DNA of 38,838 nucleotides from a virus. Its lineage: Duplodnaviria; Heunggongvirae; Uroviricota; Caudoviricetes. The translations under genes were made by a program, and so were the position numbers. The stretch covers positions 1-38,838 of the IMG/VR virus record IMGVR_UViG_2718217859_000004. One strand, 5' to 3'. Below, one piece after another: positions 9,272 through 38,838 of this stretch (positions within the stretch are counted from its first letter, which is position 1; each line of letters begins with the position of its first letter). A model generated the notes under the pieces. The model had not been told where the DNA came from and searched no databases. It worked only from the letters and a program-made list of their open reading frames with translations.

Positions 9272-9272
9272 C

Positions 9273-12989: not shown

Positions 12990-12996
12990 TTATTTG

Positions 12997-16159: not shown

Positions 16160-16350
16160 CCTGAAACACCGGGGGACGGCAGACGCGCAAAAACGCGCTA
16201 TTTATGAAAATTTTCAGGGAAAAAGCAGATCCGTTCTTCTTCTGGATAACCTGTTGTTTAATAGGACTTTCTTTAAAAAAAGAAAGGATCTGGCAGCGGT
16301 GATTTTTCGCTGAAAAAAGCGTTTTGAGATCCTTTCTTCTTTTTGTGAGG
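16160..16350 (+). other. Lambda-like cos site (cosN/cosB) upstream of the small terminase gene
   Basis: GGGGGACGGCAGACGCGCAAAAACGCGCTATTTATGAAAATTTTCAGG...CCGTTCTTCTTC closely parallels lambda GGGCGGCGACCTCGCGGGTTTTCGCTATTTATGAAAATTTTCCGG...CCGTTCTTCTTC; palindrome CTTTCTTT-aaaa-AAAGAAAG lies in the cosB-equivalent region. Confidence 0.7.
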
Positions 16351-16360
16351 AATATGTGCC

Positions 16361-16909
16361 GTGAAGGTTAACAAAAAGAAACTGGCAGAGATTTTTGAGT
16401 GCGATGTCAGAACAATCACTGGCTGGCAAAGTCAGGGGCTGAGAGTTTTGTCGGGGGGAGGCAAAGGTATCGAGGCCATGTTCAATACTGCAGAAGCCAT
16501 TGAGTGGTATGCGCAGCGGGAAAAAGATATCGAAAACGAAAAGCTCCGCAAAGAACTGGAAGATTTGCGTGCGGCTGCAGAATCAGATTTACAACCCGGC
16601 ACCATTGACTATGAACGCTACCGGCTCACCAAAGCACAGGCTGACGCACAGGAGATGAAAAATGCCCGTGAAGAAGGGCTGGTGCTGGAAACGGAATTGT
16701 TTACCTTCATTCTGCAACGTGTGGCACAGGAGATTTCGGGGATACTTGTACGTGTGCCGCTGACATTACAGCGTAAATATCCGGATATTTCACCGTCACA
16801 CCTTGATGTGGTGAAAACTGAAATCGCGAAAGCCTCCAATGTTGCAGCTAAAGCCGGTGAAAACGTGGGCAGGTGGATTGATGATTTCAGACGCACAGAA
16901 GGCAGCTAA
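16361..16909 (+). CDS. Terminase small subunit, lambda Nu1-like
   Basis: [41 protein letters not shown]...[13 protein letters not shown]...[28 protein letters not shown] aligns closely with lambda Nu1; GTG start. Confidence 0.9.
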
Positions 16910-18797
16910 TGCAGCCGGTGCGATAGCTACAGGGCTTTTATCTCTCAATATTCCGGTTCCACTGACGACGGTTCAGTGGGCTGATCAACATTATTATCTG
17001 CCGAAAGAATCTTCATACACTCCCGGACAATGGGAAACCCTGCCGTTTCAGGTTGCCATTATGAACAGCATGGGAAATGACCGGATCCGCACCGTTAATC
17101 TGATTAAATCGGCGCGCGTTGGTTACACTAAAATGCTGTTGGGGGTGGAGGCTTATTTTATTGAGCATAAATCCCGTAACAGTCTGCTTTTTCAGCCAAC
17201 AGATTCTGCGGCAGAAGATTTCATGAAATCTCATGTTGAGCCAACGATCAGGGATGTCCCTGCATTGCTGGAGCTGGCTCCATGGTTCGGAAGAAAACAT
17301 CGTGACAACACGCTCACTCTGAAGCGTTTTTCCTCCGGTGTGGGGTTCTGGTGCCTGGGCGGTGCCGCAGCTAAAAACTACCGTGAAAAATCTGTGGATG
17401 TGGTCTGCTATGACGAACTCTCCTCGTTTGAACCGGATGTGGAAAAAGAAGGCTCGCCGACGCTGCTTGGCGATAAACGTATCGAAGGCTCGGTATGGCC
17501 TAAATCCATACGTGGCTCAACGCCGAAAATTAAAGGCTCCTGCCAGATTGAGAAAGCCGCGAATGAATCTGCGCATTTCATGCGGTTTTATGTCCCTTGC
17601 CCTCATTGCGGGGAGGCTCAGTATCTGAAGTTTGGCGATGATGCGACGCCGTCTGGCCTGAAATGGGAGAAGGGTAAACCGGAAACGGTGTATTACCTGT
17701 GTGAACATAATGGCTGTGTGATCCGCCAGTCGGAACTTGATCAGACCGACGGGCGCTGGATTTGTGACAATACCGGGATGTGGACGCGCGACGGCCTGGC
17801 ATTTTACAGCGCCGGTGATGAGGAGATGCCGCCACCGCGCTCCGTCACTTTCCATATCTGGACGGCGTACAGCCCGTTCACCACCTGGGTACAGATTGTT
17901 TATGACTGGCTGGATGCACTGAAGGATCCGAACGGTGTCAAGACGTTTATTAACACCACGCTCGGGGAGCCCTATGAAGAGGCCGTGGCAGAAAAACTGA
18001 GCTTTGAGTTGTTGCTGGAAAAAGTCTGCCACTATGGCGCGCAGGTTCCCCTGCGGGTGGTTTACCTGACCGCCGGGATCGACTCCCAGAAAGATCGCTA
18101 CGAAATTTATGTCTGGGGCTGGGCGCCTGGCGAAGAAGCTTTTCTGATTGATAAGCAAATTATCATGGGGCGACCGGAAGACGAGGACACCCTTAAACGT
18201 GTTGATGCGGTGATCCGGAAAAAATACCGCCATGCTGACGGTACTGAAATTTCCATTTCCCGTGTCTGCTGGGATACCGGTGGTATCGACCAGGACATTG
18301 TGTATCAGCGTTCCAGGAAACACGGCACTTTTTTTGTGCTTCCCATAAAAGGGGCATCGGTGTACGGCAAGCCGGTGATCACCATGCCCAAAAAGCGCAA
18401 CCAGCGTGGTGTGTTTTTGTGTGAGGTGGGCTCCGATACCGTCAAGGAAATGCTGTACGCCCGTTTTGCCCTGCCGGTGGTATCTGCCAGTGAAGCCGCC
18501 CCGTATACCTTCCGTTTTCCGGATAACCCCGACATTTTTTCGGAAGAAGAGGCGCGTCAGATCGTGGCGGAAGAGCTGGTGGAGAAGGTGGTTAATGGCA
18601 GGGTGAAACTGCTGTGGGATAAAAAAGGGCGACGCAACGAAGCCCTCGACTGCCTGGTATATGCCTATGCTGCCCTGCGCGTTTCGGTACAGCGGTGGCA
18701 ACTGGACCTTGAAGCGCTGGCGAGAGCACGAAGAGATGAACAGGATGAGGATGATATGAGCATGGAAGAGATCGCGGCTGCACTGAGTGGAGGATAA
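16881..18797 (+). CDS. Terminase large subunit, lambda gpA-like
   Basis: Long collinear match to lambda A ([25 protein letters not shown]...; [20 protein letters not shown]...; VWGWAPGEE...DKQIIMGRP); start overlaps Nu1 3' end as in lambda. Confidence 0.9.
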
Positions 18798-18800
18798 GTG

Positions 18801-19010
18801 ATGATTTATACGCATGAGATGCTTTGTGATGCCCGCCGGGCATTACATGAACTGATGATCGGACGTGCTGTGGTTTCTGTCGGCAGGAACGGACGGCAGG
18901 TTCAGTATTCGCGGGCGACGATTGGTGAACTGCGGCAATACATTGAAGAGCTGGAGAGTGCGCTGGGTGTGTCCGGACGGCGTCGCGGTCCGGTGGGAGT
19001 GAGGCTGTGA
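18801..19010 (+). CDS. Head-tail joining protein, lambda gpW-like
   Basis: 69 aa; ...ARRALHELMIGRAVVSVGRNGRQVQYSRATIGELRQYIEELE...GRRRGPVG parallels lambda W. Confidence 0.85.
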   Translation: MIYTHEMLCDARRALHELMIGRAVVSVGRNGRQVQYSRATIGELRQYIEELESALGVSGRRRGPVGVRL

Positions 19011-20578
19011 ATGTGGAGTTGATAGATGTTCACGGACAGCCCCTGCGACAGAGTATGGGATATTCCGGTGGCGGCTCCGGATTTGGTGGGCAGCTTGCGG
19101 AATGGCTGCCTGCACCGGAAAGTGCCGATGTGGCGCTGTTGCCTTCCATTCAGCTGGGTAATGCCCGTGCGGATGATCTGGTCCGTAATAATGGCATTGC
19201 CGCGAATGCTGTGGAAATCCATAAAGACCATATCGTCGGACATATGTTTCGCCTGAGCTACCGACCCAACTGGCGCTGGCTGGGGATGTCAGAAGCTGAT
19301 TCGCATGCCTTTATTGAAGATGTGGAGGCGGCGTGGATGGAATACTGCGATCCGGTGTTTGGCTCGATGGATGTGGAAGGACGTCGCTCGTTTACCGAAT
19401 TTATTCGTGAAGGGGTGGGGGTCCATACTTTTAACGGTGAAATTTTTGTCCAGCCTGTATGGGATGCGGAATCCACGTCATTATTCAGAACAAAATTCAA
19501 GACCATCAGTCCGAAGCGCGTCAGTACGCCCGGTTATGGCATCGGCGATCGTTTTATGCGTGCCGGAGTGGAAATCAGCCGGCACGGAAAGGCGATAGCC
19601 TACCATGTTCAGGATGATGACTGGCCGGGTTACAGTGTCAGTAACTGGACACGGATTACGGCGACTCTGCCCTCCGGAAGACCGGGCATGATCCATGTGT
19701 TTCAGCCGCAGGAGGACGGGCAGACGCGCGGGGCAAACCAGTTTTACTCTGTCATGGAGCGCCTCAAGATGCTCGACACACTGCAGGCCACGCAACTGCA
19801 GTCGGCGATGGTGCGGGCGATGTATGCCGCGACGATTGAATCCACACTGGATTCGGAAAAAGCATTTGAATATATCGCCGGGGTGGGGGATGACAGTAAA
19901 AACCCGCTGAAAGCCATCATGAAAGGCTATGCGCACTATTACGCCATCAATGGGGTAAAGATGGGAGGGGTTCGTATTCCGCATCTTTATCCGGGGGATT
20001 CACTGAATCTGCAGACGGCACAGAATGCGGATAATGGGTTCTCTGAACTGGAAAAGGCGCTGTTACGCTACATCGCAGCCGGACTGGGCGTGTCCTATGA
20101 ACAGCTTTCCCGTGATTATTCACAGGTCAGTTATTCCAGTGCCAGGGCATCCGCCAATGAGTCGTGGCGGTATTTTATGGGGAAACGAAAATTTGTGGCC
20201 AGCCGTCTGGCGTCACAGATGTTTGCCTGCTGGCTGGAAGAAGCCCTTATTCGTGGTGTGATCCGCCCACCGAAATCCCGTTTCTCATTCTGGGAGGCCC
20301 GTTCCGGGTGGTGCCGTGCCGAGTGGATTGGTGCCGGTCGCATGGCGATTGATGGCCTTAAGGAAGTGCAGGAAGCGGTGATGCGTATTGAAGGTGGTTT
20401 AAGCACGTACGAGAAAGAACTGGCCCTGATGGGCGATGACTATCAGGAGATTTTCCGCCAGCAACTGCGTGAAAGCCAGGAGCGACAGGCGGCTGGTCTT
20501 CCCCGCCCCATCTGGATAAAGGACACGTTTCAGCAGCAGATCCGACAGACAACGGGAGAGAAAGGCGATGCGTCGTAA
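19007..20578 (+). CDS. Portal protein, lambda gpB-like
   Basis: GTG overlapping W stop; SGGGSGFGGQL...GNARADDLVRNNG...RGANQFYSVMERLKMLDTLQATQLQSAMVRAMYAATIES aligns with lambda B. Confidence 0.9.
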   Translation: MNVELIDVHGQPLRQSMGYSGGGSGFGGQLAEWLPAPESADVALLPSIQLGNARADDLVRNNGIAANAVEIHKDHIVGHMFRLSYRPNWRWLGMSEADSHAFIEDVEAAWMEYCDPVFGSMDVEGRRSFTEFIREGVGVHTFNGEIFVQPVWDAESTSLFRTKFKTISPKRVSTPGYGIGDRFMRAGVEISRHGKAIAYHVQDDDWPGYSVSNWTRITATLPSGRPGMIHVFQPQEDGQTRGANQFYSVMERLKMLDTLQATQLQSAMVRAMYAATIESTLDSEKAFEYIAGVGDDSKNPLKAIMKGYAHYYAINGVKMGGVRIPHLYPGDSLNLQTAQNADNGFSELEKALLRYIAAGLGVSYEQLSRDYSQVSYSSARASANESWRYFMGKRKFVASRLASQMFACWLEEALIRGVIRPPKSRFSFWEARSGWCRAEWIGAGRMAIDGLKEVQEAVMRIEGGLSTYEKELALMGDDYQEIFRQQLRESQERQAAGLPRPIWIKDTFQQQIRQTTGEKGDAS

Positions 20579-22175
20579 TTTATCGCATATTGCCGCCATG
20601 GCATTTAATGAGCCGCTTTTACTGGAACCCGCCTATGCGCGGGTTTTCTTTTGCGCGCTGGGTAAAGAGATGGGGGCCGGCAGCCTTGCAGTTCCTCAGC
20701 AGGCTGTTCAGCTTGATGCTGATGGTATGCAACTGGCTGTGACTGACTATATGGCGGGCGGTCAGCGTCCGGCAAAGAGTTACCAGGTGAAGAATGGCAT
20801 CGCCATTCTGCCGGTGAGCGGCACGCTGGTGCATAAACTGGGTACCCTGCGGCCTTACTCTGGCATGACAGGCTATGACGGTCTGACTGCTCGTCTTCAG
20901 ATGGCGGTGAATGATCCGGATGTGCGCGGCATTTTGCTGGATATCGACAGCCCGGGCGGTCAGGCAGCCGGGGCGTTTGACTGTGCTGACATGATTTACC
21001 GCCTGCGGGAACAGAAGCCCGTGTGGGCGCTGTGTAATGACATGGCCTGTTCAGCCGCCATGTTGCTGGCGGCAGCCTGTACGCGTCGGCTGGTCACGCA
21101 GACGGCAAAAATTGGTTCGATTGGCGTGATGATGGCGCACACCAGTTACGAGAAACAACTGGCACAGGAAGGGGTGGACATCACGCTGATTTACTCCGGG
21201 CAGCACAAGGTTGACGGCAACAGTATTCAGGCATTGCCGGCAGGTGTGCGTGCAGATTTTCAGCGCCGTATTGATGAGGCCCGCCGGATGTTTGTCGACA
21301 AGGTGTCGCTTTATACGGGGCTGAGTTCAGAGGCGGTGATGAATACCGAGGCTGCCGTTTATGACGGTCAGGCAGGGATTGATGCAGGCCTGGCTGATCA
21401 ACTGATTAATGCTGCAGATGCCGTTGAAGTGATGGTTTCTGCAATAAATAAAGAAATTAATAGAGAGGTAAATATGTCGCAAACGAATGTTTCGATCATT
21501 GAGGCTGTGGCCCAGGAAAATCAGCGCGTGATGGAGATCCTGAATTGTCAGGAGGCGAAAGGGCGCGAGCAACTTGCGCAAATGCTGGCAGGTCAGCCTG
21601 GAATGACGGTAGAGCAGGCGAAAGCGTTCCTGGCTGCTGTGCCTGCTGCCAGTGTGGCAAATACAGGTGATCAGATTATGGGGCTGCCGGAAGCAAAGGG
21701 GCGTGAGCAACTGGCACAGATGCTGGCAGGTCAACCGGGGATGACGGTGGAGCAGGCGAAAGCGTTTCTGGCGGCAGCCCCTGCTGCCGGCACAGGCGAT
21801 CAGATTATGGCGTTACCAGAAGCAAAAGGGCGTGAACAACTCGCGCAGACGCTGGCTGAACAGCCGGGAATGACCGTTGACCAGGCCAAAACGTTACTGG
21901 CGGCGGCACCGGTTGCTGGTTCTGCAAGTGTCGGCGATCAGATTATGGCGCTGCCGGAGGCGAAAGGGCGCGAGCAACTTGCACAGGCACTGACAGAACA
22001 ACCTGGAATGACGGTGGCGCAGGCGAAAACGCTGCTGGCAGCCGCGCCGGTGGCATCGCAACCGTCACAGGAAACACTTTTTGATCGCTTTATGGCACAG
22101 CATGCTGCCAGTGCGGTTTCCGGTGGCGGAACTGCCGGGCGCGGGGAGGAAGACCTGCTGATGAGTATGCCGTAA
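20568..22175 (+). CDS. Head maturation protease / scaffold, lambda gpC-like (S49/ClpP-like), with expanded C-terminal repeats
   Basis: MRRNLSHIAAMAFNEPLLLEPAYARVFFCALG...SYQVKNGIAILPVSGTLV...RTGSIGVMMAH aligns with lambda C; 535 aa vs ~439 in lambda because of tandem repeats. Confidence 0.9.
   Translation: MRRNLSHIAAMAFNEPLLLEPAYARVFFCALGKEMGAGSLAVPQQAVQLDADGMQLAVTDYMAGGQRPAKSYQVKNGIAILPVSGTLVHKLGTLRPYSGMTGYDGLTARLQMAVNDPDVRGILLDIDSPGGQAAGAFDCADMIYRLREQKPVWALCNDMACSAAMLLAAACTRRLVTQTAKIGSIGVMMAHTSYEKQLAQEGVDITLIYSGQHKVDGNSIQALPAGVRADFQRRIDEARRMFVDKVSLYTGLSSEAVMNTEAAVYDGQAGIDAGLADQLINAADAVEVMVSAINKEINREVNMSQTNVSIIEAVAQENQRVMEILNCQEAKGREQLAQMLAGQPGMTVEQAKAFLAAVPAASVANTGDQIMGLPEAKGREQLAQMLAGQPGMTVEQAKAFLAAAPAAGTGDQIMALPEAKGREQLAQTLAEQPGMTVDQAKTLLAAAPVAGSASVGDQIMALPEAKGREQLAQALTEQPGMTVAQAKTLLAAAPVASQPSQETLFDRFMAQHAASAVSGGGTAGRGEEDLLMSMP
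21474..22175 (+). CDS. Putative in-frame internal scaffold protein (Nu3-like) nested in the C gene
   Basis: In-frame ATG 21474 preceded by AGAGAGG (spacing 6), just upstream of the repeat region; by analogy with lambda Nu3 nested in C. Confidence 0.4.
   Translation: MSQTNVSIIEAVAQENQRVMEILNCQEAKGREQLAQMLAGQPGMTVEQAKAFLAAVPAASVANTGDQIMGLPEAKGREQLAQMLAGQPGMTVEQAKAFLAAAPAAGTGDQIMALPEAKGREQLAQTLAEQPGMTVDQAKTLLAAAPVAGSASVGDQIMALPEAKGREQLAQALTEQPGMTVAQAKTLLAAAPVASQPSQETLFDRFMAQHAASAVSGGGTAGRGEEDLLMSMP
21553..22060 (+). repeat. In-frame tandem coding repeats (about 3.7 copies of a 129-138 nt unit) in the C/Nu3 scaffold region
   Basis: Units begin ~21553, 21691, 21819, 21957, each encoding EAKGREQLAQ.LA.QPGMTV.QAK..LAA.P.A....GDQIM.LP; copies diverged at synonymous and non-synonymous sites. 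Confidence 0.85.
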
Positions 22176-22213
22176 GCGATATCCGGAATTCAGATAAATC
22201 AGGAGACTGAAAA

Positions 22214-22549
22214 ATGATTAAAACCACCACGGAAAAGCGCGCGGATGTGAACATTTTTGCCGGAAGCGATCCGGCGCATACCGCAAAAGCCACCAGTGGT
22301 ATCAGTGCCGCCACGCCTGCACTGACGCCACTGATGCTGGATGACGCCACCGGTAAACTGGTGGCATGGGATGGTCAGAAAGCCGGAACGGCCGTGGGGG
22401 TGCTGACTCTGGCGCTTGCCGGAACAGAACCCACGCTGACGTACTACAAAAGCGGTACGTTTGCCAGTGAGTCGCTGGTCTGGCCTGACTCTGTGGATGC
22501 GGTGAAAAAAGCCAACGCGTTTGTGGGAAGTGCCATCAGCCACGCCTGA
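22214..22549 (+). CDS. Head decoration protein, lambda gpD-like
   Basis: SDPAHTAKATSGISAATPALTPLMLDDATGKLVAWDG...YYKSGTFASESLVWPD aligns with lambda D. Confidence 0.9.
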   Translation: MIKTTTEKRADVNIFAGSDPAHTAKATSGISAATPALTPLMLDDATGKLVAWDGQKAGTAVGVLTLALAGTEPTLTYYKSGTFASESLVWPDSVDAVKKANAFVGSAISHA

Positions 22550-22617
22550 TGGTGAAGTGATTAACTGAAAAACGGGTCGCGATGCGGCCCGTTTGTGTTT
22601 CTGAAGGAAAATAAATT

Positions 22618-23646
22618 ATGGGGTTATTTACCACGCGTCAGTTACTCGGGTACACCGAGCAGAAAGTGAAATTTCGTGCGCTGTTTCTGGAGCTGTTCTT
22701 TCGTCGCACGATCACTTTCCATACTCAGGAAGTCATGCTGGATAAAATTACCGGCAAAACACCGGTTGCGGCGTATGTGTCTCCGGTGGTGTCAGGCAAA
22801 GTGCTGCGCAGCCGTGGTGGTGAAACCCGTGTGTTACGTCCTGGTTATGTAAAACCAAAACACCGCTTTGATTATCAGCAGGCAGTGGAACGTCTTCCGG
22901 GAGAAGATCCGGCCCGCCTTAATGACCCGGCTTACCGCCGTTTGCGTATTCTGACGGACAACCTGAAACAGGAAGAGCAGGCGATTGTGCAGGTGGAAGA
23001 AATGCAGGCGGTCAGTGCCGTTCTGCAGGGTAAATACACCATGAGTGGCGAGCAGTTTGAAACGGTGGAAGTGGATTTTGGGCGTTCTGCCGCCAATAAC
23101 ATTACGCAGGCTGGCGGACGCGAATGGTCACAGCAGAATGCTGACACCTTCGATCCGACGCATGATCTGGATGCGTACTGCGATTTCGCTTCCGGCACCA
23201 TCAATATCGCGATTATGGACGGCACGGTCTGGCGTATGCTGAACGGTTTTAAACTGTTCCGTGAGAAACTGGATACCAGCCGCGGCTCCAAATCTGAGCT
23301 GGAAACCGCACTGAAAGACCTGGGCTCCGTGGTTTCCTTTAAAGGTCATTACGGCGATCTGGCCATTGTGGTGGCGAAGACAACGTATGTTGACGAAAAC
23401 GGGGATGAACAGCGTTATCTGCCGGAAGGTACACTGATTCTGGGGAACACTCAGGCGGAGGGCGTCCGTTGCTATGGCGCAATCCAGGATAATCAGGCGC
23501 TGAGTGAAGGGATCACCTCTGCAACGCGTTATCCGAAACACTGGGAGGTTATTGGCGATCCAAGTTGTGAATATACCATGACGCAGTCTGCGCCGTTGAT
23601 GGTGTTGCCGGATCCGGATGCGTTTGTGGTGGTTCAGGTGAAATAA
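22618..23646 (+). CDS. Major capsid protein, lambda gpE-like
   Basis: 342 aa; VSPVVSGKVLRSRGG...PGYVKPKH...QVEEMQAVSAVLQGKYTM...GDLAIVV...SAPLMVLPDPDAFVVVQV aligns across the length of lambda E. Confidence 0.9.
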   Translation: MGLFTTRQLLGYTEQKVKFRALFLELFFRRTITFHTQEVMLDKITGKTPVAAYVSPVVSGKVLRSRGGETRVLRPGYVKPKHRFDYQQAVERLPGEDPARLNDPAYRRLRILTDNLKQEEQAIVQVEEMQAVSAVLQGKYTMSGEQFETVEVDFGRSAANNITQAGGREWSQQNADTFDPTHDLDAYCDFASGTINIAIMDGTVWRMLNGFKLFREKLDTSRGSKSELETALKDLGSVVSFKGHYGDLAIVVAKTTYVDENGDEQRYLPEGTLILGNTQAEGVRCYGAIQDNQALSEGITSATRYPKHWEVIGDPSCEYTMTQSAPLMVLPDPDAFVVVQVK

Positions 23647-23696
23647 GACGGGGCGGGATATTCCCGCCTTTTTCTTTAGCGCACGGGAGAGATGTG

Positions 23697-24062
23697 ATGA
23701 CAAAAGAGCAGATGACTGAACGTTTGCAGGAACTGGCAGTGATTCTGGGGCGTGAAGCAGATATTTCAGGTTCAAAAGCCGATCTTGAGCAGCGCCTGGC
23801 GGAATGGGAAGAGGAGGCCGCCGGATTCGATGGGGAGGAAACAGGGAAGGAAGAGGTGGGCAACGATGCATCCGGCGACGGAATGCATTCTGAGCGGGGA
23901 CTCGCCCGGGTGCGTATGCTGAAAACGGCGCATATGCCAGCCTGTGATGCTGTGACGGGAAAAATGTTGATGTTTGCCCGGGCCTCGAGTGTTGTGCTGG
24001 TTAATGAAGCCGCAGTTCCTGCGTTGCTGGCGGACGGTCTGGCAGAAAAAATCCGGGAGTGA
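23697..24062 (+). CDS. DNA packaging protein, lambda FI-like
   Basis: Position after capsid gene; MTKEQMTERLQELAVILGREADISGSKADLEQRLAEWEEE... parallels lambda FI N-terminus. Confidence 0.7.
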   Translation: MTKEQMTERLQELAVILGREADISGSKADLEQRLAEWEEEAAGFDGEETGKEEVGNDASGDGMHSERGLARVRMLKTAHMPACDAVTGKMLMFARASSVVLVNEAAVPALLADGLAEKIRE

Positions 24063-24064
24063 TG

Positions 24065-24466
24065 ATGTTCGATAATCTGTTCGATCAGGCCATGAGTGAT
24101 GCGGATGACATCATCCTGGATACGATGGGGACGGAAATCAGCATATATCCGGGCGGCACGGAAAGAAGAATCCGTGCCGTTTTTGATGCCCCGGCAGATA
24201 ACACCGGGATGAACACTGGCAGCGGCGAAATTCGTGATACTGCGCCCGTGTTATTTACCCGGAGCGCATGGGCCGCCGGTCTGAAAAAATATGACAGGGT
24301 CATGATCCACGGCGAACCCTATCAGGTAGTCGATCCCGGCTGGGATGAGTCAGGCACTGCGGGTCAGGGGGTGATTACCATCACCCTTGCGCGTGGAGAG
24401 CCGGGGAGAAATACACCTGCTGCACCGGAACGACCGAGTAAACGTTATGGCAGTCAGAGAGCATGA
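24065..24466 (+). CDS. Head-tail connector protein, lambda FII-like
   Basis: MFDNLFDQAMSDADDIILDTMG vs lambda FII MADFDNLFDAAIARADETIRGYMG. Confidence 0.8.
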   Translation: MFDNLFDQAMSDADDIILDTMGTEISIYPGGTERRIRAVFDAPADNTGMNTGSGEIRDTAPVLFTRSAWAAGLKKYDRVMIHGEPYQVVDPGWDESGTAGQGVITITLARGEPGRNTPAAPERPSKRYGSQRA

Positions 24467-26339: not shown

Positions 26340-26370
26340 TTTCCTTTCAGTTTTTTCCGGAATAAACAAC

Positions 26371-29455: not shown

Positions 29456-29481
29456 ATTCGCGTAAAAGAACGGTAAACACC

Positions 29482-30009: not shown

Positions 30010-30028
30010 AAAAGAAATGAATCATCAG

Positions 30029-30050
30029 ACCGCCTGAGGGCGGTTTTTTT
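30029..30050 (+). terminator. Intrinsic terminator between tail-fibre chaperone and sheath gene
   Basis: ACCGCC-tgag-GGCGGT followed by T7. Confidence 0.65.
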
Positions 30051-30063
30051 ATGGGAGAAATGT

Positions 30064-31539: not shown

Positions 31540-32054
31540 TGACGGGTGAAAAAAAACTGTTGCGCGCATGGGCGTTATTTCTTCCTGGCGGGATCCGCCT
31601 TCAGGGGGCGCATGAATACACGCCGCCTGCGATTAATATCACGACAGTGGATATCAAAACCGGCGCAATGGATGCACCGGTGGCAGTGGATGACGGCATG
31701 GAAGCGCTGACCTGTTCGTTTAAGATTTATGGTTATGATGTTGCCATGCTTACGCTGCTGGGATTACAGGCCGGGCTTTATTCGCCGGAGATCGTTGTCC
31801 GCCAGGGTTACCAGGTGGGGAATGCGACCAGCGGACAGGTGGAAACCCTGCAGGGAATGATCACCAGTATCACGCCGGATGCACGTCCGGCAACGTCACA
31901 GGCAGAGGCTTCGGTGACGGTGGAAATGTCGCTGAGTTATTACCGTCAGACTGTCGACGGTGTGGAAACCATCTGCATTATTCCGGAGGAATTTGTGCGT
32001 CGTATTAACGGCGTTAATGTTCTGTCAGATCTGAAAAAAATCATTCGGGTTTAA
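31536..32054 (+). CDS. Tail tube protein (P2 FII-like)
   Basis: 172 aa, same as P2 FII; C-terminus INGVNVLSDLKKIIRV vs VNGVDRLEQHRRNIGL; start overlaps sheath stop. Confidence 0.8.
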   Translation: MMTGEKKLLRAWALFLPGGIRLQGAHEYTPPAINITTVDIKTGAMDAPVAVDDGMEALTCSFKIYGYDVAMLTLLGLQAGLYSPEIVVRQGYQVGNATSGQVETLQGMITSITPDARPATSQAEASVTVEMSLSYYRQTVDGVETICIIPEEFVRRINGVNVLSDLKKIIRV

Positions 32055-32073
32055 TCCGGTGATCCTGCCATTC

Positions 32074-32100
32074 AGGCGGCTCAGGCCGCCTTTTCTTTTT
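32074..32100 (+). terminator. Intrinsic terminator/attenuator between tube and tail-chaperone genes
   Basis: AGGCGGC-tcag-GCCGCCT followed by TTTTCTTTTT. Confidence 0.6.
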
Positions 32101-32114
32101 TAAAGGAGATGCTT

Positions 32115-32417
32115 ATGTCGGAAAAAAACAGTGTTCCTGCCAGCAGCGTGGAAATTGTGTTATCCGTGCCGTATGTCACCGCATCAGGACAGACGATCAC
32201 ACACATCACCATGCGTGCGCCTACCGTTCGCGATCGTCTGTTGCATCGCCGGAGCACTAAGCCGGAAGCAGAGGCCGATCTGGATATGATTGCCGGTCTG
32301 TGTGGGATGGACGCGGCAGACATGATGAATATGGAAGCGTGCGATTACCTGGCTCTGGAGCGGCAGTTTAATGTTTTTTTGCTGCCGCCGGTCCGGCGGA
32401 AGAAGAAAACATCCTGA
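32115..32417 (+). CDS. Tail assembly chaperone (P2 gpE-like), zero-frame product
   Basis: ATG 32115 six nt after AAGGAG; ends ...FNVFLLPPVRRKKKTS; located between tube and tape-measure genes. Confidence 0.75.
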   Translation: MSEKNSVPASSVEIVLSVPYVTASGQTITHITMRAPTVRDRLLHRRSTKPEAEADLDMIAGLCGMDAADMMNMEACDYLALERQFNVFLLPPVRRKKKTS

Positions 32418-32554
32418 TGGCGATACGGCGCGCCGGTGCCTGGTTAGGGTGGTCTCCCGTGGATGTGATGGCGCTGCCGTATGAGGATTTTGTGACAATG
32501 ATGCTGGCAGAGTCGGAGGAGAGGAAGCAACGTTATGGCAACGGTTGGCGATAA
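32115..32554 (+). CDS. Tail assembly chaperone frameshift product (P2 gpE+E'-like), -1 shift at T_TTT_TTG (32375-32381)
   Basis: Slippery heptamer T TTT TTG in the E frame; the -1 frame continues stop-free for 57 codons (AAAGPAEEENILMAIRRAGAWLGWSPVDVMALPYEDFVTMMLAESEERKQRYGNGWR) to TAA at 32552-32554, overlapping the tape-measure start. Confidence 0.7.
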
Positions 32555-34187
32555 CCTTAAAGCGAATATCCGGATCGGCGGCACGATAGATCCGTCGTGG
32601 AAAAATTCTGTTAATGGACTGAAAAAGGGCCTTTCCGGAGCCACGCGTGAAGTGGCTCGTCTGACACGCCAGCAGGACGTACTGAAACGAAAAATCCAGG
32701 CTGGCGTACTGGCTGGACAGGATATTACTGAACTGCGAAAGCAGTATGAAAAGCTGGGTAAAAAAATCCATAATGCCACCGCTGAGCAGGACAGATTTAA
32801 CCGCGAACTGGCGCGTGCGGAACGTCTGGCTCGCTGGAAAGGGCGTGGAACGACAGCCCTGAAAGTGGGGGGCGGGCTTTCAGTCGGGGCAGGACTGACA
32901 CTGGCAGGCGCTGCAGGTGCAGCACTTAGCCGGAACAGTGAAACGGCAGAGCGGGCAGGGATAGCCCGCAGTTATGGGGTGGATTATGAAACCTATGCGT
33001 CATGGGATTCTCTGGCCCGACTGATGGGGCTGAACGGTGAAAACATCGGTGATCTGTTTGAGGAGTACCGGAACAAGGTTTTTGACGATGATAATGGTGC
33101 CACGGATAAAGGGGCCATTCAGGAGGTCTTTGGAAAACTGGGACTGAAAGCCGGGGTGATGGCAGGGAAAAGTAACCAGGAGCAGGTCGAATTTTTATTT
33201 GATCGCTTACTGCAGGTAGAGAATGAACAGGTGGCAGCCGGGATGGCAGATGCGTTGTTCGGTGGTGAGGCCAATAAAATTCTGACCTGGATGCGTCTGT
33301 CAGGGAAAACTTACCGGGAGCTTATCAGTGAGCAGAAACGCTATAACCTGGTGACAAAGGCCGGGGCTGATGGTGCAGTTCAGGGACATGTGGCACTGTC
33401 AAATCTCCGTAATGTTCTGAGTTCTTCCATTGATGAAATCAGCGGACAGCTGGGTAATGAACTTGCCCCACGTATCCAACAGGTGACGGATGATCTTGCG
33501 GCCTGGTTTAAGGAGGGGGGCCTTGAGAAGATTCAGGCATTTATCCTTGATGATGCCCTGCCGGCGTTGATCGACTTGTCCGAGTGGATGTGGAAATTCG
33601 GAAAAGTTCTTGCAGGAATAACGCAGAAAGCCATTGAGTGGGGGCTGGCGGATGATTCGCGAGAGGACCGGCGAGAGGTGCTGGAATATCTGGCAAAAAT
33701 GGGGTCGCCTGAGCTGGCGAGAGCGGTGGCGCAGAAAAACGGTCAGGGTGAATGGTTTGATGAACTGCTCAGGCAAAATCCGGACCTGACGAAACAGGTT
33801 GTACAGGCTTATAAAGACACTCGCGGTTATCTCCCCTGGAACCATGACGATAAAAAGTTTGATGCATTTCTCGATCCTTTGCTGGGACCGAAGGAAGAAC
33901 CTGATTTTAAGGCGATAAAAGAGAAATCCCGCACCTACATTGACGGACTTCCTGCGGCTGGTCAGGGACAGGAAAATCCTGATCGCCTTTCAGCTCTCCA
34001 GTATACACCCGGCAGTATCAGCCAGGTGGAAGTAAAACCCACGTATCAGATACGGGCGGAATTCAACATTACCCAGAAACCTGGCGAGGATGCCGGACAA
34101 CTTGCAGACAGGGTGATGAAAAATCTGGGGGATATTAATTTTGGCCAGCGTTCCCGTATGACTGATGGTTATGAATCCTGGGGGTGA
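32535..34187 (+). CDS. Tail tape measure protein
   Basis: 550 aa, helical, Gly/Ala-rich central segment; canonical position after the chaperone pair. Confidence 0.8.
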   Translation: MATVGDNLKANIRIGGTIDPSWKNSVNGLKKGLSGATREVARLTRQQDVLKRKIQAGVLAGQDITELRKQYEKLGKKIHNATAEQDRFNRELARAERLARWKGRGTTALKVGGGLSVGAGLTLAGAAGAALSRNSETAERAGIARSYGVDYETYASWDSLARLMGLNGENIGDLFEEYRNKVFDDDNGATDKGAIQEVFGKLGLKAGVMAGKSNQEQVEFLFDRLLQVENEQVAAGMADALFGGEANKILTWMRLSGKTYRELISEQKRYNLVTKAGADGAVQGHVALSNLRNVLSSSIDEISGQLGNELAPRIQQVTDDLAAWFKEGGLEKIQAFILDDALPALIDLSEWMWKFGKVLAGITQKAIEWGLADDSREDRREVLEYLAKMGSPELARAVAQKNGQGEWFDELLRQNPDLTKQVVQAYKDTRGYLPWNHDDKKFDAFLDPLLGPKEEPDFKAIKEKSRTYIDGLPAAGQGQENPDRLSALQYTPGSISQVEVKPTYQIRAEFNITQKPGEDAGQLADRVMKNLGDINFGQRSRMTDGYESWG

Positions 34188-34189
34188 AG

Positions 34190-34678
34190 ATGGTGGATTT
34201 ACTGGGCTGGGGCGTAAACCGGCTTGAGCGCGAAGCATGGGACGCAGTGGGCTCATTAACGGAGGTGGCTTCCCGCGTCATGCTGTCGTTTGGTGAGTTT
34301 GAATTCAGTATCGATACGGCAGCGTATAACGCCATGAAGCGCACGATGGAATGGCGATGGGATGAACAACAGCTTATCGGAAAAAACGACCTGCTGCAGT
34401 ATACCGGCAAGGGGGCCAGAACGATAACCCTTGAAGGTATGGTGCATGCGGGATTTCGTGACGGTGTGGGAATGGATGCCCTTGATACACTGGTTCAGAT
34501 GGTGGATGACAATCCGGCCCCGCATCTTCTGGTCTCGTGCACAGGTGATGTGATGGGGTATTTCGTGGCAACCGCCTATTCAGATAACACCACCTCCTTT
34601 CTTCCCGGCGGTGCGCCAAAGAATAAAACGTTCACTCTGGAGCTGAAATACTATGGCGAAAAACTGGCGGACCACTGA
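34190..34678 (+). CDS. Tail protein U (P2 gpU-like)
   Basis: ATG 34190 after GGGGG (alt. GTG 34184 overlapping tape-measure stop); size and position match P2 U. Confidence 0.65.
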   Translation: MVDLLGWGVNRLEREAWDAVGSLTEVASRVMLSFGEFEFSIDTAAYNAMKRTMEWRWDEQQLIGKNDLLQYTGKGARTITLEGMVHAGFRDGVGMDALDTLVQMVDDNPAPHLLVSCTGDVMGYFVATAYSDNTTSFLPGGAPKNKTFTLELKYYGEKLADH

Positions 34679-34871
34679 CGGCGATATGCTGGATGACATC
34701 TGTCAGAGGCACTATGGCAGTGCCGGGCTTAACCAGTCACTGGCGGCGGTACTGGAGGCTAATCCGGGGCTGGCTGACCTTGGTCCGGTCTGTCCGGCGG
34801 GAGTGGAAATCGTGTTGCCGGACTGGGTATATGAACCGGAAGTGAAGGAGACGTTTCAGTTATGGGAGTGA
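34653..34871 (+). CDS. Tail protein X (P2 gpX-like)
   Basis: 72 aa; DGDMLDDICQRHYG...LEANPGLADLGPVCPAGVEIVLPD...KETFQLWE parallels P2 X (QGDTLDAICVRYYG...LAANPGLAELGAVLPHGTAVELPD...TVNLWE). Confidence 0.8.
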   Translation: MAKNWRTTDGDMLDDICQRHYGSAGLNQSLAAVLEANPGLADLGPVCPAGVEIVLPDWVYEPEVKETFQLWE

Positions 34872-35950
34872 ATGAGTATCAGCCGGATTTCAGTCTGACA
34901 GCGGAAGGTCAGGATATCACGAAGGAAATAAAACGAGGTCTGGCTGAGCTGCGATATACCGATAATGGTGCTGGCACAAAGCGGTCCGATGAACTGATGA
35001 TAACGCTGTTCAGTGAGACGCTGGCGTTGCCCCCGAAAGGCGCGGTGCTAACGCTGGGACTGGGGTTCAACGGAAATCTGGTAAATAAAGGCAGCTTTAC
35101 CGTCTGTCAGGTGGCAAGTGGTGGCCCTCCCCGCCGGATCACCATTTATGCCACCGCAGCCCCCATGAATGCGTCAAAACATGGCGCGGACGTGACCGCA
35201 CTGAAAACCCGCGCTTTCAGTGATATCTCGCTGGGAGACCTGGTAAAAACCATCGCCACTGAAAATAATCTGGTGGCGCAGGTATCACCGGCGCTGGCTG
35301 GTATTCATATCCCGTGGGTGATGCAGTCATCAGAATCTGATGCAGCCCTCCTGTCCCGCATTGCAGGTATGTACGGTGCCACCAGTAAACCGACCAGTGG
35401 CTACTGGTTGTTTCTGGAATACGGGGCATCACAGAGTGCAGGGGGCAGAAATGCCCCTGAGATAACCATTACGCCGGGTATGGTATCAGACTGGGATTAT
35501 CGTGAAGGTGAGCGACAGGGCGCTGCGGGTGGCGGGAAAGATGGGAAAGTGGGTGTCCGGTATTTTGATGCCCGTGACGGACGCACACGTGAAGTTAAAG
35601 TTGACGTGGAGTCAACAGATAAGCGGCATCCGTTTACCCAGCCTGACCAGGGCACCGCAAAACACTGTGCAGAGTCGAAGGTTAAACGTGTGCAGAAAGC
35701 CGGACGCCTGATGACGATAACGTTGCCCTGCAGACCGGAACTGCTGAAAGCGGGGGCGGAGGTGCGTTTTATCACGCAGGGATTTGGTGTGCGTGAGGAC
35801 CATTACTGGCAGGCTGAATCGGTGGAGTTTTCACTGGCACCGGGGCAGGGATTTTCGCTGAATCTGTCGCTGACCACGGATATTTCCGCGAAAGGACAGG
35901 CATCAGGGAAGAAGAACGCGGATAAAAAAGGTGTCAATTATTTTGGTTAA
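34862..35950 (+). CDS. Tail protein D (P2 gpD-like, late control D family)
   Basis: 362 aa; position after X; start overlaps X stop. Confidence 0.75.
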   Translation: MGVNEYQPDFSLTAEGQDITKEIKRGLAELRYTDNGAGTKRSDELMITLFSETLALPPKGAVLTLGLGFNGNLVNKGSFTVCQVASGGPPRRITIYATAAPMNASKHGADVTALKTRAFSDISLGDLVKTIATENNLVAQVSPALAGIHIPWVMQSSESDAALLSRIAGMYGATSKPTSGYWLFLEYGASQSAGGRNAPEITITPGMVSDWDYREGERQGAAGGGKDGKVGVRYFDARDGRTREVKVDVESTDKRHPFTQPDQGTAKHCAESKVKRVQKAGRLMTITLPCRPELLKAGAEVRFITQGFGVREDHYWQAESVEFSLAPGQGFSLNLSLTTDISAKGQASGKKNADKKGVNYFG

Positions 35951-35974
35951 TTTTTTTAAATCAGGAAATTAAAA

Positions 35975-38248
35975 ATGTCTGTATTAATTTCGGGTGTGCT
36001 GACGGATGGTGCGGGGCTCCCCTTGTCCGGATACCATATTATTCTGAAAGCCTGGCAAAATACATCCGCAGTGGTCATGAGAACGGTGGCAACAGTGGTG
36101 ACAGGGCCGGCAGGAGAATATGCATTTGAAGCCCAGACCGGAAGATATGATGTTTATCTTCGTTCGTGTATTGAAAGAGAATATTGCGTCGGTGATATTT
36201 CGGTTTACGACGACTCAAAGCCCGGCACACTGAACGACTTTCTGACCGCCCTCGATGAAGGCGATTTAAAACCGGATGTAGTGAAACGCTTTGAGGAAAT
36301 GGTGGCGCAGGCGCAGCAGAGCGCGGAAGCAGCAGCGGAAAGCGAGCGACAGGCCGGGCAACATGTCGCTGATGCGCAGAAGATAAAGGAAGACTGCGAG
36401 ACGCTGGCGGATAACGTACAGCAGAATGCAGAAGCCGTTGCCGAAGACAAAAATCAGGTGGCGCTGCTGGCATCATCTGCCACACAGGATGCGGCCCGCG
36501 CAGAGCAGGCTGTCAAGGATGCCGACACGATAGTCCGGAAAGCGGTCGATAAACTTGCTGATGCTGCAACGCTGACCGGCGAGGCAAAAGCCAGTGCCGA
36601 AGCTGCCGCACAAAGCGAACAGAATGCGGAAAATCACGCTGATAATGCAGCACAAAGCGCACAGCAGACCGCGCAGGATGTGGAGGCAACGGTCACCGCC
36701 CGTGATGATGCGGAACGTTTTGCGGGTGAGGCAGAAAACAGCGCACAGTCATCAGGCACATCGCGGGATGAATCAGTCGATGCCGCCGAACGTGCCCGCC
36801 TTTATCATAATGCCGCATCATCAGCTGCAACCAGCGCGGAAAATGCAGCAAATGCTGCACTCGGGCATGAAAATAACGCTGCCGAATACGCCCGACAGGC
36901 TAAAGACAGCCAGGATGCAGGTGCAGACAATGCGCAGGAAGCGAAACAGTACAGGGATGAGGCGCAGCAGATAGTTGATGACCTGAATGCAACAAATGCC
37001 AGCACGACAGAAAAAGGTCTGGTGCAACTGTGTAGTGATACGGACAACGACAGCGATGAACTGGCTGCCACGCCAAAGGCTGTCAAAGCCGTCATGGACG
37101 AAACGAAAACAAAAGCGCCACTGGACAGCCCGGCCTTCACCGGCACCCCAACCACCCCAACCCCACCGGATGATGCCGCCGGTCTGGAAGCAGCGAACGC
37201 AGCGTTTGTGCGCAAACTGCTTGCTGCGCTGGTTGGCTCATCGCCGGAAGTTCTGGACACCCTGAACGAGCTGGCAGCGGCGCTGGGCAATGACCCGAAC
37301 TTTGCGACGACAATCACAAACGCGCTGGCAGGCAAACAACCGCTTAATGACGTCTTAACGGCAATCAGCGCACTGACGCAACGGGCAGATAATCTTCTGT
37401 ACTTCAATACAGACGGGAATGCCTCACTGTCTCTGCTGTCAGAGAAGGGCCGCGCATTGCTGGCGCATGACACGGCTGAAGCCATGCGCACGGAGCTTGA
37501 GCTGAGCGCGGCTGCGACGATGGAACCCCAGAGTGATATCCGTGACCGCACACCGGGCAGGCTGGCCCTGTCCGGGATGTATGGGTTTGGACAGGCATTC
37601 ACCAGCGCCGAAGCTCTGTCATTTAACGGACAGGCTGATTTCGTTATATGGCTGCAGACAGTCACCCCGGGGCGTTATGCGGTCAGTATTGCGGACTCCT
37701 CCACGCTGCTGGTGGGCACCACGAAATTTAACGGTATCATTGATGTGATGTGGTCACCCTCTGATAACGATGGTTCAGACTCAGCGCGTAAATTCAAAAT
37801 GCTGCTGTACTACAACCAGTATTACGAGGATGAGCACAGCATACATTGTATGCGTTATCGCTACAGTGGTAACAGCTGGAATGCAACATCAAGCCTTATT
37901 GTGTATGACGGTAGCTCACTGGCGTACTTGTTGTCCAGGACGGCGGGGTCAGGCTCATATTACAAATACCCGGCCGTCGGTGTGCCGATAATGGCGGTAT
38001 ATCAGGGGGAGAGTTTTGGTGCAGATGTGTCTCTGGGGCTCGGTGATACTGTGCCGGGTTCCCGTCTTGGCCCTCTGGCCATGAGTGCACGGATTAGCGA
38101 TACAGGGACATACCAGTCCTCACCGGTGGCTGTGATTGGCGGTGCCGGTGAATACAACTTCCCCGGTCGTTACGCGGCGCTTTCGGGGACCCGCATTAGT
38201 CACGATACAACGCGTGGCTATATTGGCCTTTTTGTACGCATTGAGTAA
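35975..38248 (+). CDS. Side tail fibre protein, lambda Stf-like (with P2 H-like central segment)
   Basis: N-terminus MSVLISGVLTDGAGLPLSGYHIILKAWQNTSAVV...ISVYDDSKPGTLNDFL parallels lambda Stf; central KGLVQLCSDTDNDSDELAATPKAVKAVMDETKTKAPLDSPAFTGTPT...LNELAAALGNDPNFATTITNALAGKQP matches the Stf/P2 H shared segment; Ala/Gln/Glu-rich helical shaft. Confidence 0.85.
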   Translation: MSVLISGVLTDGAGLPLSGYHIILKAWQNTSAVVMRTVATVVTGPAGEYAFEAQTGRYDVYLRSCIEREYCVGDISVYDDSKPGTLNDFLTALDEGDLKPDVVKRFEEMVAQAQQSAEAAAESERQAGQHVADAQKIKEDCETLADNVQQNAEAVAEDKNQVALLASSATQDAARAEQAVKDADTIVRKAVDKLADAATLTGEAKASAEAAAQSEQNAENHADNAAQSAQQTAQDVEATVTARDDAERFAGEAENSAQSSGTSRDESVDAAERARLYHNAASSAATSAENAANAALGHENNAAEYARQAKDSQDAGADNAQEAKQYRDEAQQIVDDLNATNASTTEKGLVQLCSDTDNDSDELAATPKAVKAVMDETKTKAPLDSPAFTGTPTTPTPPDDAAGLEAANAAFVRKLLAALVGSSPEVLDTLNELAAALGNDPNFATTITNALAGKQPLNDVLTAISALTQRADNLLYFNTDGNASLSLLSEKGRALLAHDTAEAMRTELELSAAATMEPQSDIRDRTPGRLALSGMYGFGQAFTSAEALSFNGQADFVIWLQTVTPGRYAVSIADSSTLLVGTTKFNGIIDVMWSPSDNDGSDSARKFKMLLYYNQYYEDEHSIHCMRYRYSGNSWNATSSLIVYDGSSLAYLLSRTAGSGSYYKYPAVGVPIMAVYQGESFGADVSLGLGDTVPGSRLGPLAMSARISDTGTYQSSPVAVIGGAGEYNFPGRYAALSGTRISHDTTRGYIGLFVRIE

Positions 38249-38262
38249 TGAGGAAATCAGGC

Positions 38263-38838
38263 ATGAAAATCAGAGCGGTGAAAGGCATCAGAAACGCACA
38301 TTATCTTGAAAATGGTGCGGTTGACTGCGAGGTGTTATTTGAAGGTGAAACGGAGTTCGCCCTGTATACTGCCATACAGGATGATATGGCCCCGACAGGC
38401 CAGCATGTCTGGCAGGAGCTGCAAAGCGGGAAATGGGGCGAAATCGCCCCGTTCACTGTCACGCCGGAACTTATTGCAGCGGCAAAGGATGCCAAAAGGC
38501 GGGAAATTGAGGCATGGCGCGACAGTCAGGAAAACATTGAGTTTATTTTCACGTTTGATGGCCGTCGTTTTGATGGCGGAAAAACCTCGCAGTCACGCCT
38601 TGCCCCCGTGGTTGCAGCAGCACAGGCCGGACTGCTTCCGGATGGTTTTTTCTGGACTGATGCGGATAATAACAACGTCGTACTGACCAGGGAGAAACTT
38701 ATTGCGCTGAACGATGCCATGATGGTGGCCATGGTGACGGAGGGTTTTAAAATCCACGAACGTCAGCGGGAGATGAAAGAGGAACTGAATAATCTTGATG
38801 ATTTACGCTCAATCCGAGCGTTTGACGTTACGCAATAA
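38263..38838 (+). CDS. Putative tail fibre assembly / chaperone protein (DUF4376-like), tentative
   Basis: ATG 38263 after AGGA (alt. ATG 38248 overlapping Stf stop); immediately downstream of the fibre gene; complete (TAA at 38836-38838). Confidence 0.45.
   Translation: MKIRAVKGIRNAHYLENGAVDCEVLFEGETEFALYTAIQDDMAPTGQHVWQELQSGKWGEIAPFTVTPELIAAAKDAKRREIEAWRDSQENIEFIFTFDGRRFDGGKTSQSRLAPVVAAAQAGLLPDGFFWTDADNNNVVLTREKLIALNDAMMVAMVTEGFKIHERQREMKEELNNLDDLRSIRAFDVTQ

Follow-up and report, generated by a model that had tools for sequence, protein, structure and literature searches.

Lambda-family head and neck genes on a P2/R-pyocin-family tail: the late operon of a probable lambdoid temperate myovirus

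We analysed a 38,838-nucleotide stretch of DNA from a tailed virus of the Caudoviricetes (IMG/VR record IMGVR_UViG_2718217859_000004, positions 1 to 38,838; hereafter the window), with emphasis on positions 16160 to 38838, which hold the virion genes. Our reading, to which we give a probability of about 0.8, is that the virion genes here make up the entire late operon of a lambdoid temperate myovirus, in which a head and neck of the lambda family are carried on a tail of the P2/R-pyocin family, and that the combination is an established lineage. The element is a coherent and probably functional virion operon on a prophage of the E. coli type. The lambda-head/P2-tail design itself is old and already described, from Wolbachia phage WO and marine Vibrio/Halomonas phages, and the window brings no new principle of phage architecture.

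Head, tail and neck genes of the late operon

Genes were assigned using Pfam, PHROG profiles, tblastn and BLAST, hhalign profile comparison and sequence searches of the PDB, and hairpins using a terminator scan. The 26 late genes all lie on the + strand, in a single block running from 16361 to the end of the window (Table 1). Pfam families were obtained for 22 of them and PHROGs for orf240, orf188, V and T, and all 26 open reading frames (ORFs) are intact, with the lengths seen in relatives.

The left part of the block reproduces the lambda module in its order (Nu1, gpA, gpW, portal, S49 protease/Nu3, D, E, FI, FII), with all nine genes above the Pfam cut-offs and a lambda-like cos layout in front of them, so that the lambda-type head set named in the initial annotation is confirmed. 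Gene order from Nu1 to FI, a homologous FII and the cos layout are shared with phage 21 and lambda. Amino acid identities from Nu1 to E are 45-65% to lambda and 45-87% to phage 21. FI is 41% identical to that of phage 21, gave no BLAST match to lambda FI and was assigned by Pfam, while FII is 33% identical to lambda FII and gave no BLAST match in phage 21.

The resemblance to phage 21 and lambda does not extend to the tail. The Lambdavirus-like non-contractile tail genes Z, U, V, G/GT, H, M, L, K, I and J gave no tblastn match in the whole window, and sheath and tube genes are present, which agrees with the earlier assignment of a P2-type tail (V, W, J, I, H, G, sheath, tube, E/E', T, U, X, D) and answers the concern that homology searches might place these genes in a siphovirus family. 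The window and P2 have in common the V-W-J-I-H-G and FI-FII-E-E'-T-U-D gene sets and the TTTTTTG frameshift motif. They differ in that tail identity is only 23-51% at the amino acid level, that an X gene stands between U and D in the window, and that P2 has four Ogr-dependent operons where the window has one long co-oriented operon of the Q type. BLAST relates neither E nor T to P2, though both match the same families; no DNA similarity between P2 and the tail region was found, and P2 Q, P, O, N, M, L, R, S and ogr gave no tblastn match anywhere in the window. Thus the comparison called for in the initial annotation shows a lambda/phage 21-like head and a tail that belongs to the P2 family but stands far from P2. 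V gave no Pfam match at E<=0.01 and is 26% identical to P2 V and 53-54% to V of Hafnia phage yong2 and Citrobacter phage Chris1; the sheath is 37% identical to that of P2, 46% to that of Vibrio phage Valp1 and 60-63% to those of yong2 and Chris1. The predicted E' extension, whose -1 frame overlaps the start of T, is kept in a related locus (L001) and weakly in yong2, and a Pfam search of this extension alone added no family.

Between these two parts, the neck follows the 'type 1' plan of lambda, HK97 and Mu, with W as adaptor and FII as closure protein, then Neck1 and the terminator. It is unlike the neck of P2, because it combines FII with a Neck1/gpZ-class protein and a terminator and gives no match to P2 R, S or L by tblastn. 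We call orf188 a tail terminator with a gpU/pyocin-collar fold: its best structural match is the pyocin collar, and its family profile weakly matched the R2 pyocin collar PA0615 (E=1e-3). FII is 75% identical to its counterpart in a Salmonella myovirus and 32-36% identical to those of yong2 and Chris1; orf240 is 41-43% identical to its yong2/Chris1 homologues and 29% to that of Valp1. The Pfam family Minor_tail_Z was weakly matched by the Valp1 homologue of orf240 and, at 4.7e-12, by the gene at the same position in Wolbachia phage WO. Searches with the window proteins themselves were negative: neither orf240 nor orf188 has a Pfam match, profile comparisons of orf240 with lambda Z and P2 S and of orf188 with P2 R and lambda U gave nothing, and single-sequence searches of both proteins against solved structures returned nothing useful. 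Among species-representative genomes, the terminator gave no match as a single protein and only two loci as a trimmed alignment. The 'Z/U-like' label given earlier to these genes therefore stands for function and fold, through remote evidence, and was rejected as a statement of sequence similarity, since neither BLAST nor profiles relate them to lambda Z or U.

Table 1. Features of the late region and of its presumed control elements. The last column gives amino acid identity to the window (%) for Salmonella locus L013 / metagenome locus L015 / Vibrio phage Valp1.
Feature	Position	Strand	Evidence or description	Identity
Q-like antiterminator gene	10691-11239	+	Pfam DUF1133 3.8e-100; Phage_antitermQ 28.8 bits (cut-off 26)	
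tR'-like terminator	11334-11353	+	terminator scan	
cos-like packaging site	16140-16350	+	cosN region ~16172-16186, then R3-like, I1-like, R2-like, R1-like elements	
Nu1, terminase small subunit	16361-16909	+	Pfam Phage_Nu1 8e-85; 87% aa phage 21, 52% lambda	
gpA, terminase large subunit	16839-18797	+	Pfam GpA_ATPase, GpA_nuclease; 83% aa phage 21	
gpW, head-tail adaptor	18798-19010	+	Pfam gpW 1.5e-23	
Portal gpB, lambda family	19007-20578	+	Pfam Phage_portal_2 2.5e-93	75 / 65 / 48
S49 protease/scaffold, gpC/Nu3-type	20568-22175	+	Pfam Peptidase_S49	
Decoration protein, gpD-type	22214-22549	+	Pfam HDPD 1e-22	
Hairpin D/E	22570-22594	+	11 bp stem, weak U tail; 58-nt segment -19.4 kcal/mol, z = -3.45	
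Major capsid protein, gpE-type	22618-23646	+	Pfam Phage_cap_E 1.8e-66; 82% aa phage 21	80 / 55 / 35
Hairpin E/FI	23650-23670	+	terminator-like, directly after E	
FI, packaging chaperone	23694-24062	+	Pfam Packaging_FI 2e-13	
FII-type head closure (Hc1)	24059-24466	+	Pfam Phage_attach 6.5e-13; lambda gpFII PDB 1K0H E=7.5e-8	75 / 66 / no hit
orf240, Neck1/tail-completion protein, arginine-rich, 240 aa, gpZ position	24447-25169	+	phrog_27 'tail completion or Neck1' 3e-25	
orf188, tail terminator (Tc1; gpU/pyocin-collar fold), 188 aa	25166-25732	+	phrog_1072	84 / 63 / 34
V, baseplate spike/assembly	25716-26339	+	phrog_9992 'baseplate assembly protein' 6.7e-23	
W/gp25, baseplate wedge	26371-26727	+	Pfam GPW_gp25	
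J, baseplate wedge	26702-27616	+	Pfam Baseplate_J	78 / 70 / 37
I, baseplate wedge	27609-28199	+	Pfam Tail_P2_I	
H, tail-collar fibre, P2 H-type	28196-29455	+	Pfam Phage_tail_fib	
G, assembly chaperone	29452-30009	+	Pfam Caudo_TAP	
Hairpin G/sheath	30027-30046	+	terminator-like with U run, just 5' of sheath gene	
Tail sheath	30064-31539	+	Pfam sheath domains	79 / 70 / 46
Tail tube	31536-32054	+	Pfam Phage_tube	85 / 59 / 37
Hairpin tube/E	32074-32091	+	terminator-like with U run, 3' of tube gene	
E, tail assembly chaperone	32109-32417	+	Pfam Phage_TAC_7	
E', by -1 frameshift (predicted)	slip site T_TTT_TTG 32375-32381, stop 32552-32554	+	sequence reading	
T, tape measure	32535-34187	+	phrog_3654 and tape-measure PHROGs; no Pfam match	
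U	34184-34678	+	Pfam Phage_P2_GpU; tail/baseplate hub	
X	34653-34871	+	Pfam Phage_tail_X; tail/baseplate hub	
D, tail/baseplate hub	34862-35950	+	phrog_52 9e-93; Pfam Phage_GPD below cut-off	
Stf-like fibre, 757 aa	35975-38248	+	Pfam phage_tail_N (prophage tail fibre N-terminal domain) 3.9e-54, first 134 residues	
DUF4376 partner	38248-38838	+	Pfam DUF4376	

The similarity break in FI and the joint inheritance of head and tail

A recombination seam had been proposed after FII. The break in similarity lies instead inside FI, at 23815, and thus before FII. DNA similarity to phage 21 (71-82%) begins at 16485, ends about 120 bases into FI at 23815 and never resumes. With the Salmonella locus (L013), identity is 70-74% from the portal region to 23815, then picks up again at 24067, where FII begins, and stays at 72-74% along the tail; with the metagenome locus (L015) it is 64-68% for most of the segments that align, in both halves. 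The 3' half of FI (~23815-24067) is hypervariable in all comparisons and is the sole discontinuity. To its left, the head genes are equally close to the siphovirus phage 21 and to the sister Salmonella myovirus; to its right, FII, Neck1 and the terminator co-vary with the tail. From FI through V the genes overlap without interruption at their start and stop codons (24059/24062, 24447/24466, 25166/25169 and 25716/25732), and nothing at the FII/V junction resembles a scar.

These relatives (the Salmonella and metagenome loci, Valp1, WO, yong2 and Chris1) were compared gene by gene with the window. The uniform 70-74% DNA identity to the Salmonella relative across both halves indicates that head and tail have been inherited together, and head and tail identities drop in parallel from the Salmonella locus to the metagenome locus and to Valp1 (Table 1). 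Judged by these similarities, the segment from Nu1 to the 5' part of FI comes from the phage 21/lambda gene pool, and the genes from FII onward are specific to the myovirus lineage.

The alternative that a lambda-like siphovirus and a P2-like myovirus recombined recently, in a single event with the junction after FII, finds some backing in the head genes, which resemble phage 21 at the DNA level up to a sharp boundary, in the match of the tail genes to P2 families and in the coexistence of lambda and P2 relatives in E. coli. We hold it to be highly improbable. The boundary lies on the other side of FII, the tail is too distant from P2 (low amino acid identity, no DNA similarity, and R, S, L and ogr absent by tblastn), phages of Salmonella, Vibrio and Wolbachia show the same pairing, and head and tail have diverged in parallel. 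Of the chimeric virion module described in the initial annotation, a lambda-type head joined to a P2-type tail in one co-oriented operon is retained, but a noteworthy or fresh lambda x P2 recombinant is not: the gene order is the same in Valp1, WO, Salmonella and metagenome contigs. Two adjacent prophages, or a P2-like prophage beside a lambda remnant, were also considered and are rejected in view of the frames overlapping across the junction and of the conservation of the whole block in other genera.

The established lineage that we favour draws on a lambda/21 head pool shared by siphoviruses and a contractile-tailed enterobacterial lineage at ~70-75% DNA identity, with the hypervariable stretch of FI as the exchange point. 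Since the FII/Neck1/terminator trio moves with the tail, the system should be tractable for the genetics of head-tail compatibility. In the FII alignment, the first ~25 residues are most like lambda FII, and the central 'GGEIRD.AP' loop and 'GEPG' motif are yong2-like. This pattern would fit a protein with one face turned to the head and the other to the tail, although at ~33% identity it is only suggestive. One possibility is that FII acts as a general adaptor allowing a single lambda/21-type head pool to serve both siphovirus and myovirus tails.

Relatives, distribution and state of the element

The complete operon recurs, in the same gene order, in Valp1 (Vb_VaM_Valp1), a telomere phage that we take to be a relative of the HAP1-like viruses PhiHAP-1 and VP882, which presumably correspond to the genus Hapunavirus. 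Its whole virion operon is colinear with that of the window: the small and large terminase subunits, W, portal, protease, a gene in the D position, capsid, a gene in the FI position, Hc1, Neck1, terminator, V, W, J, I, fibre, sheath, tube, E, E', T, U, X and D. Amino acid identities, for the head as for the tail, are 28-50% (A 41%, B 48%, E 35%, terminator 34%, sheath 46%, U 49%). Valp1 differs in carrying a protelomerase, ParAB and a PAAR gene and in having no detectable D homologue and no side tail fibre (Stf). In the window, by contrast, the replication and immunity region is lambda-like, and the E. coli relatives of the element are chromosomally integrated. No protelomerase, ParA or ParB of the HAP1 type was found among the early-region ORFs scanned. 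HAP1-like viruses have been classed as Myoviridae, and their homology to P2 is essentially confined to the V and F tail operons (PMC2771037).

Wolbachia phage WO has the same set at 23-46% amino acid identity: a gpA terminase, W, a lambda-family portal, C, D, capsid, small connector and gpZ-family protein, a terminator homologue (31%), V, W, J and I, and then sheath, tube, chaperones, T, U, X and D. Its tail block is separate and inverted relative to the head/baseplate block, its host and lifestyle are other, and it carries a eukaryotic-association module. The lambda/P2 make-up of WO was reportedly described by Masui as early as 2000. A lambda-like head with a P2-like baseplate has been published for WO, and a lambda/P2 make-up also for Xylella phages (Kent 2011, PMC3235987). 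Set against Valp1 and WO, the window shows the same colinear lambda-head/P2-tail operon, running from terminase to D with the FII-class, Neck1 and terminator genes in between.

For neck and tail, the closest sequenced phages are yong2 and Chris1, lambdoid temperate phages whose tail proteins are 42-63% identical to those of the window and whose terminator is 49-53% identical, in addition to the FII, Neck1 and sheath values given above. They also share a lambdoid early region, an antiterminator gene (yong2) and RusA/YdfU-type genes. In contrast, their head is of a protease-capsid fusion type without D or E homologue, terminase and portal are only ~24% identical, and the tail blocks are ordered V, sheath to D, then W-J-I-H-G, instead of V-W-J-I-H-G, then sheath to D, as in the window, Salmonella, Serratia and Valp1. 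In both arrangements a hairpin precedes the sheath gene, perhaps at the boundary of a movable block. Prophages of Serratia and Trabulsiella combine the protease-capsid fusion head with the tail order of the window, from which it follows that the same neck and tail are paired with at least two head types in Enterobacterales.

The R2 pyocin cluster of P. aeruginosa (PA0615-PA0628) has, we assume, a terminator, baseplate genes and a sheath-to-D run (U-X-D order) colinear with the window. It differs in lacking head, neck adaptor and packaging genes. This colinearity, together with the pyocin collar as best structural match of the terminator, raises another explanation, a defective element in which head and tail remnants are juxtaposed, or a prophage domesticated as a producer of R-type tailocin and leaving its head genes unused. 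It would also agree with the lack of a known isolate, with insertion sequence (IS) elements and pseudogenes in relatives and with an integrase that is not in the window. We nevertheless consider it improbable, since the 26 late ORFs are co-oriented and partly overlapping as well as intact, and intact head, W and FII genes stand directly upstream of the tail in overlapping frames, unlike in an R-type tailocin cluster. The neck genes that serve only for joining are conserved in the Salmonella relative (FII and Neck1 65-75%, W 50%), head genes are no less conserved than tail genes in 70 E. coli genomes, and the window seems to have a complete set of genes for lysis, Q, replication and immunity. 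The defective prophage that the initial annotation had kept in view as a threat to its claim is made improbable by late ORFs of the expected lengths.

The 70 genomes come from a survey of 5426 complete E. coli genomes in which we required at least 80% of 16160-38838 in one piece; identity in these reaches 98%, and the family is not uncommon. Integration is in ompW in strains OkiPb01676 and RM9088 and at a tRNA-Ser gene in STEC719. In OkiPb01676 and RM9088, genes for a subtilase-family AB5 toxin lie between the Q-like gene and the lysis genes. In the window, the early region encodes a short helix-turn-helix repressor (weak match to CI repressors), Cro, DnaT-like and P-like replication proteins, RusA and the Q-like protein, and the lysis genes comprise two holins and an M15 endolysin.

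Several points weigh against a functional lambdoid myovirus. No integrase or attachment sites lie within the window. The DNA search for a near-identical tail among sequenced phage isolates returned short fibre matches only; since no sequenced isolate carries this tail at the DNA level, particle production is a prediction here, as it is for the family. RM9088 shows decay, with an IS66 element in stf and pseudogenes in the early region. The assignment of orf240 combines a PHROG match with transitive weak hits, and its AlphaFold2 model is poor and uninformative. Finally, cosN is unlike that of lambda and phage 21, though Nu1 is 87% identical to phage 21 Nu1.

If the lambdoid myovirus reading holds, assembly may be pictured as follows. 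Late transcription would begin 3' of the Q-like gene and read through a string of hairpins resembling intrinsic terminators. The phage-21-like Nu1/A terminase would cut and package the DNA at cos, filling a prohead of lambda type made from portal B, the C/Nu3 protease-scaffold, capsid E and decoration protein D with the help of FI, and gpW and then an FII hexamer would close the portal. Separately from the head, the tail would grow on a baseplate of the P2 type (V, W, J, I, U, X and D) with H fibres folded by G. Its length would be set by T, with chaperones E and E' made through the predicted -1 frameshift at TTTTTTG. Tube and sheath subunits would form the tail, to be capped by the 188-residue terminator with the 240-residue Neck1/gpZ-class protein, and docking of FII on the terminator would join head and tail. 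The particles expected are myoviruses with two kinds of fibre, which bears on host range and on predicting the spread of toxin genes.

Hairpins, fibres, packaging site and neighbouring genes

The terminator scan of 18839-38838 returned 31 terminator-like sites, against 18.8 +/- 4.7 in shuffled sequences, and four of these are intergenic on the coding strand (Table 1). Three correspond to the hairpins of the initial annotation, found essentially where it had placed them, and the one directly after E is added here. Lambda has a hairpin directly after E (7163-7180), and yong2 has one after its capsid gene and one just upstream of its sheath gene (9100-9117), so that such hairpins are recurrent features of these operons. 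Readthrough under the control of Q is plausible for them and a reasonable inference from the Q-like gene, the tR'-like terminator, what is known of lambda and an excess of + strand terminators: of the 18 terminator-like sites between 10.5 and 17 kb, the + strand has 16, where 7.0 +/- 2.1 would be expected.

Alternatively, the hairpins could be elements that stabilise or process the mRNA, or partial attenuators that set the amounts of D, E and tube protein, instead of terminators overridden by Q. Three of the four follow genes of high-copy structural proteins (D, E and tube), the D/E hairpin lacks a good U tail, and the hairpins after the capsid genes of lambda and yong2 are equivalent. On the other hand, three show the stem and U run typical of intrinsic terminators, and the window has both a Q-like antiterminator and a tR'-like site; moreover, the two roles are not mutually exclusive. 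We regard this explanation as possible, if somewhat on the unlikely side. The data agree equally well with Q readthrough and with a role in mRNA stability or stoichiometry.

The oddest feature of the element is a collar domain of the lambda Stf type on a sheathed tail. The Stf-like fibre directly after the gpD-like gene had been noticed from the sequence, and Pfam supports it. This fibre, which bears the Stf N-terminal domain (StfN), is 82% identical to Rac-SA53 and ~45% identical to the lambda and phage 21 Stf proteins. In a survey of a phage collection, the carriers of StfN among the 40 listed of 285 matching records were siphoviruses or lambda-like converting phages. In Ur-lambda, StfN forms a dodecameric collar that encircles the bare tube where gpV and gpM meet (PMC12617516). 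The fibre is a later addition, since the operon stops at D, with no Stf-like fibre, in a Klebsiella relative and in a second contig with an E. albertii-type D protein. The StfN and DUF4376 pair is also terminal in the STEC719 member of the same tail family, at another integration site, and in a distinct baseplate-J-type tail cluster of E. coli W; given this recurrence, the StfN fibre may serve on contractile tails. In the comparison loci, the pair was located at 7001-10728 (L019) and 5023-7601 (L020). If the fibre is really mounted on these virions, its collar would have to use an undescribed docking site on the baseplate, sheath or neck of the contractile tail, a suggestion that we offer with considerable doubt.

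Some relatives have an enlarged gpI homologue of 614-998 residues, compared with 196 in the window, at 8931-10775 in L013/L014, 7414-10266 in L015, 1150-4146 in L017 and 964-3525 in L018. These proteins carry Big_2 and faint leucine-rich repeat matches, and the enlargement may be an alternative receptor-binding solution among relatives. L017 and L018, the sole loci of this kind that reach past D, are both without the Stf fibre.

At the cos-like site, alignment with lambda and phage 21 shows that the flanking blocks 'GCGGGTCCTTTCC' and 'CTATTTATGAAAATTTT' and their spacing are conserved, whereas the cosN 12-mer of lambda and phage 21 was not found there; as the 12-mer differs, the actual cut site is a prediction. 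The R3-, R2- and R1-like repeats (of the GATCCGTTCTTCTTC type) look closer to those of lambda than to those of phage 21, and by its sequence the packaging specificity may be of a third type. The window also differs from both phages in extra tandem repeats in C/Nu3. They lie in the scaffold (Nu3) part, at 21663-22051, as units of ~129-138 bp in ~3 to 4 copies with 76-78% matches, giving four 'LPEAKGREQLAQ...GMTV.QAK..LAAAP' repeats in a protein of 535 residues, versus 439 in lambda (4418-5737) and 501 in phage 21 (4406-5911).

Outside the late block, 7194-7952 encodes a cargo homologue of the Paa/AcfC-type adhesin (SBP_bac_11). The segment 3' of the Q-like gene (11327-13893) encodes an AraC-family regulator, a TerB-like protein and, on the - strand, a DUF4145 protein; L001 and L016 have tRNAs and subtilase-family AB5 toxin genes at the same position. 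Virulence cargo in members of the family sits where lambdoid phages carry toxins; relatives have the AB5 toxin genes, and the window has Paa. Rfam matches on the - strand at 808-996 comprise a C4 antisense RNA (808-895, 79 bits) and isrK (920-996, 65 bits), overlapping the 5' part of a Rha/Ash-domain ORF (196-1047), which suggests an antisense-RNA antirepressor control circuit of the P1/P7 type in the early region. At 8122-8292, an Rfam match to the sok antitoxin RNA (101 bits) points to a hok/sok toxin-antitoxin cassette in the nin-like region.

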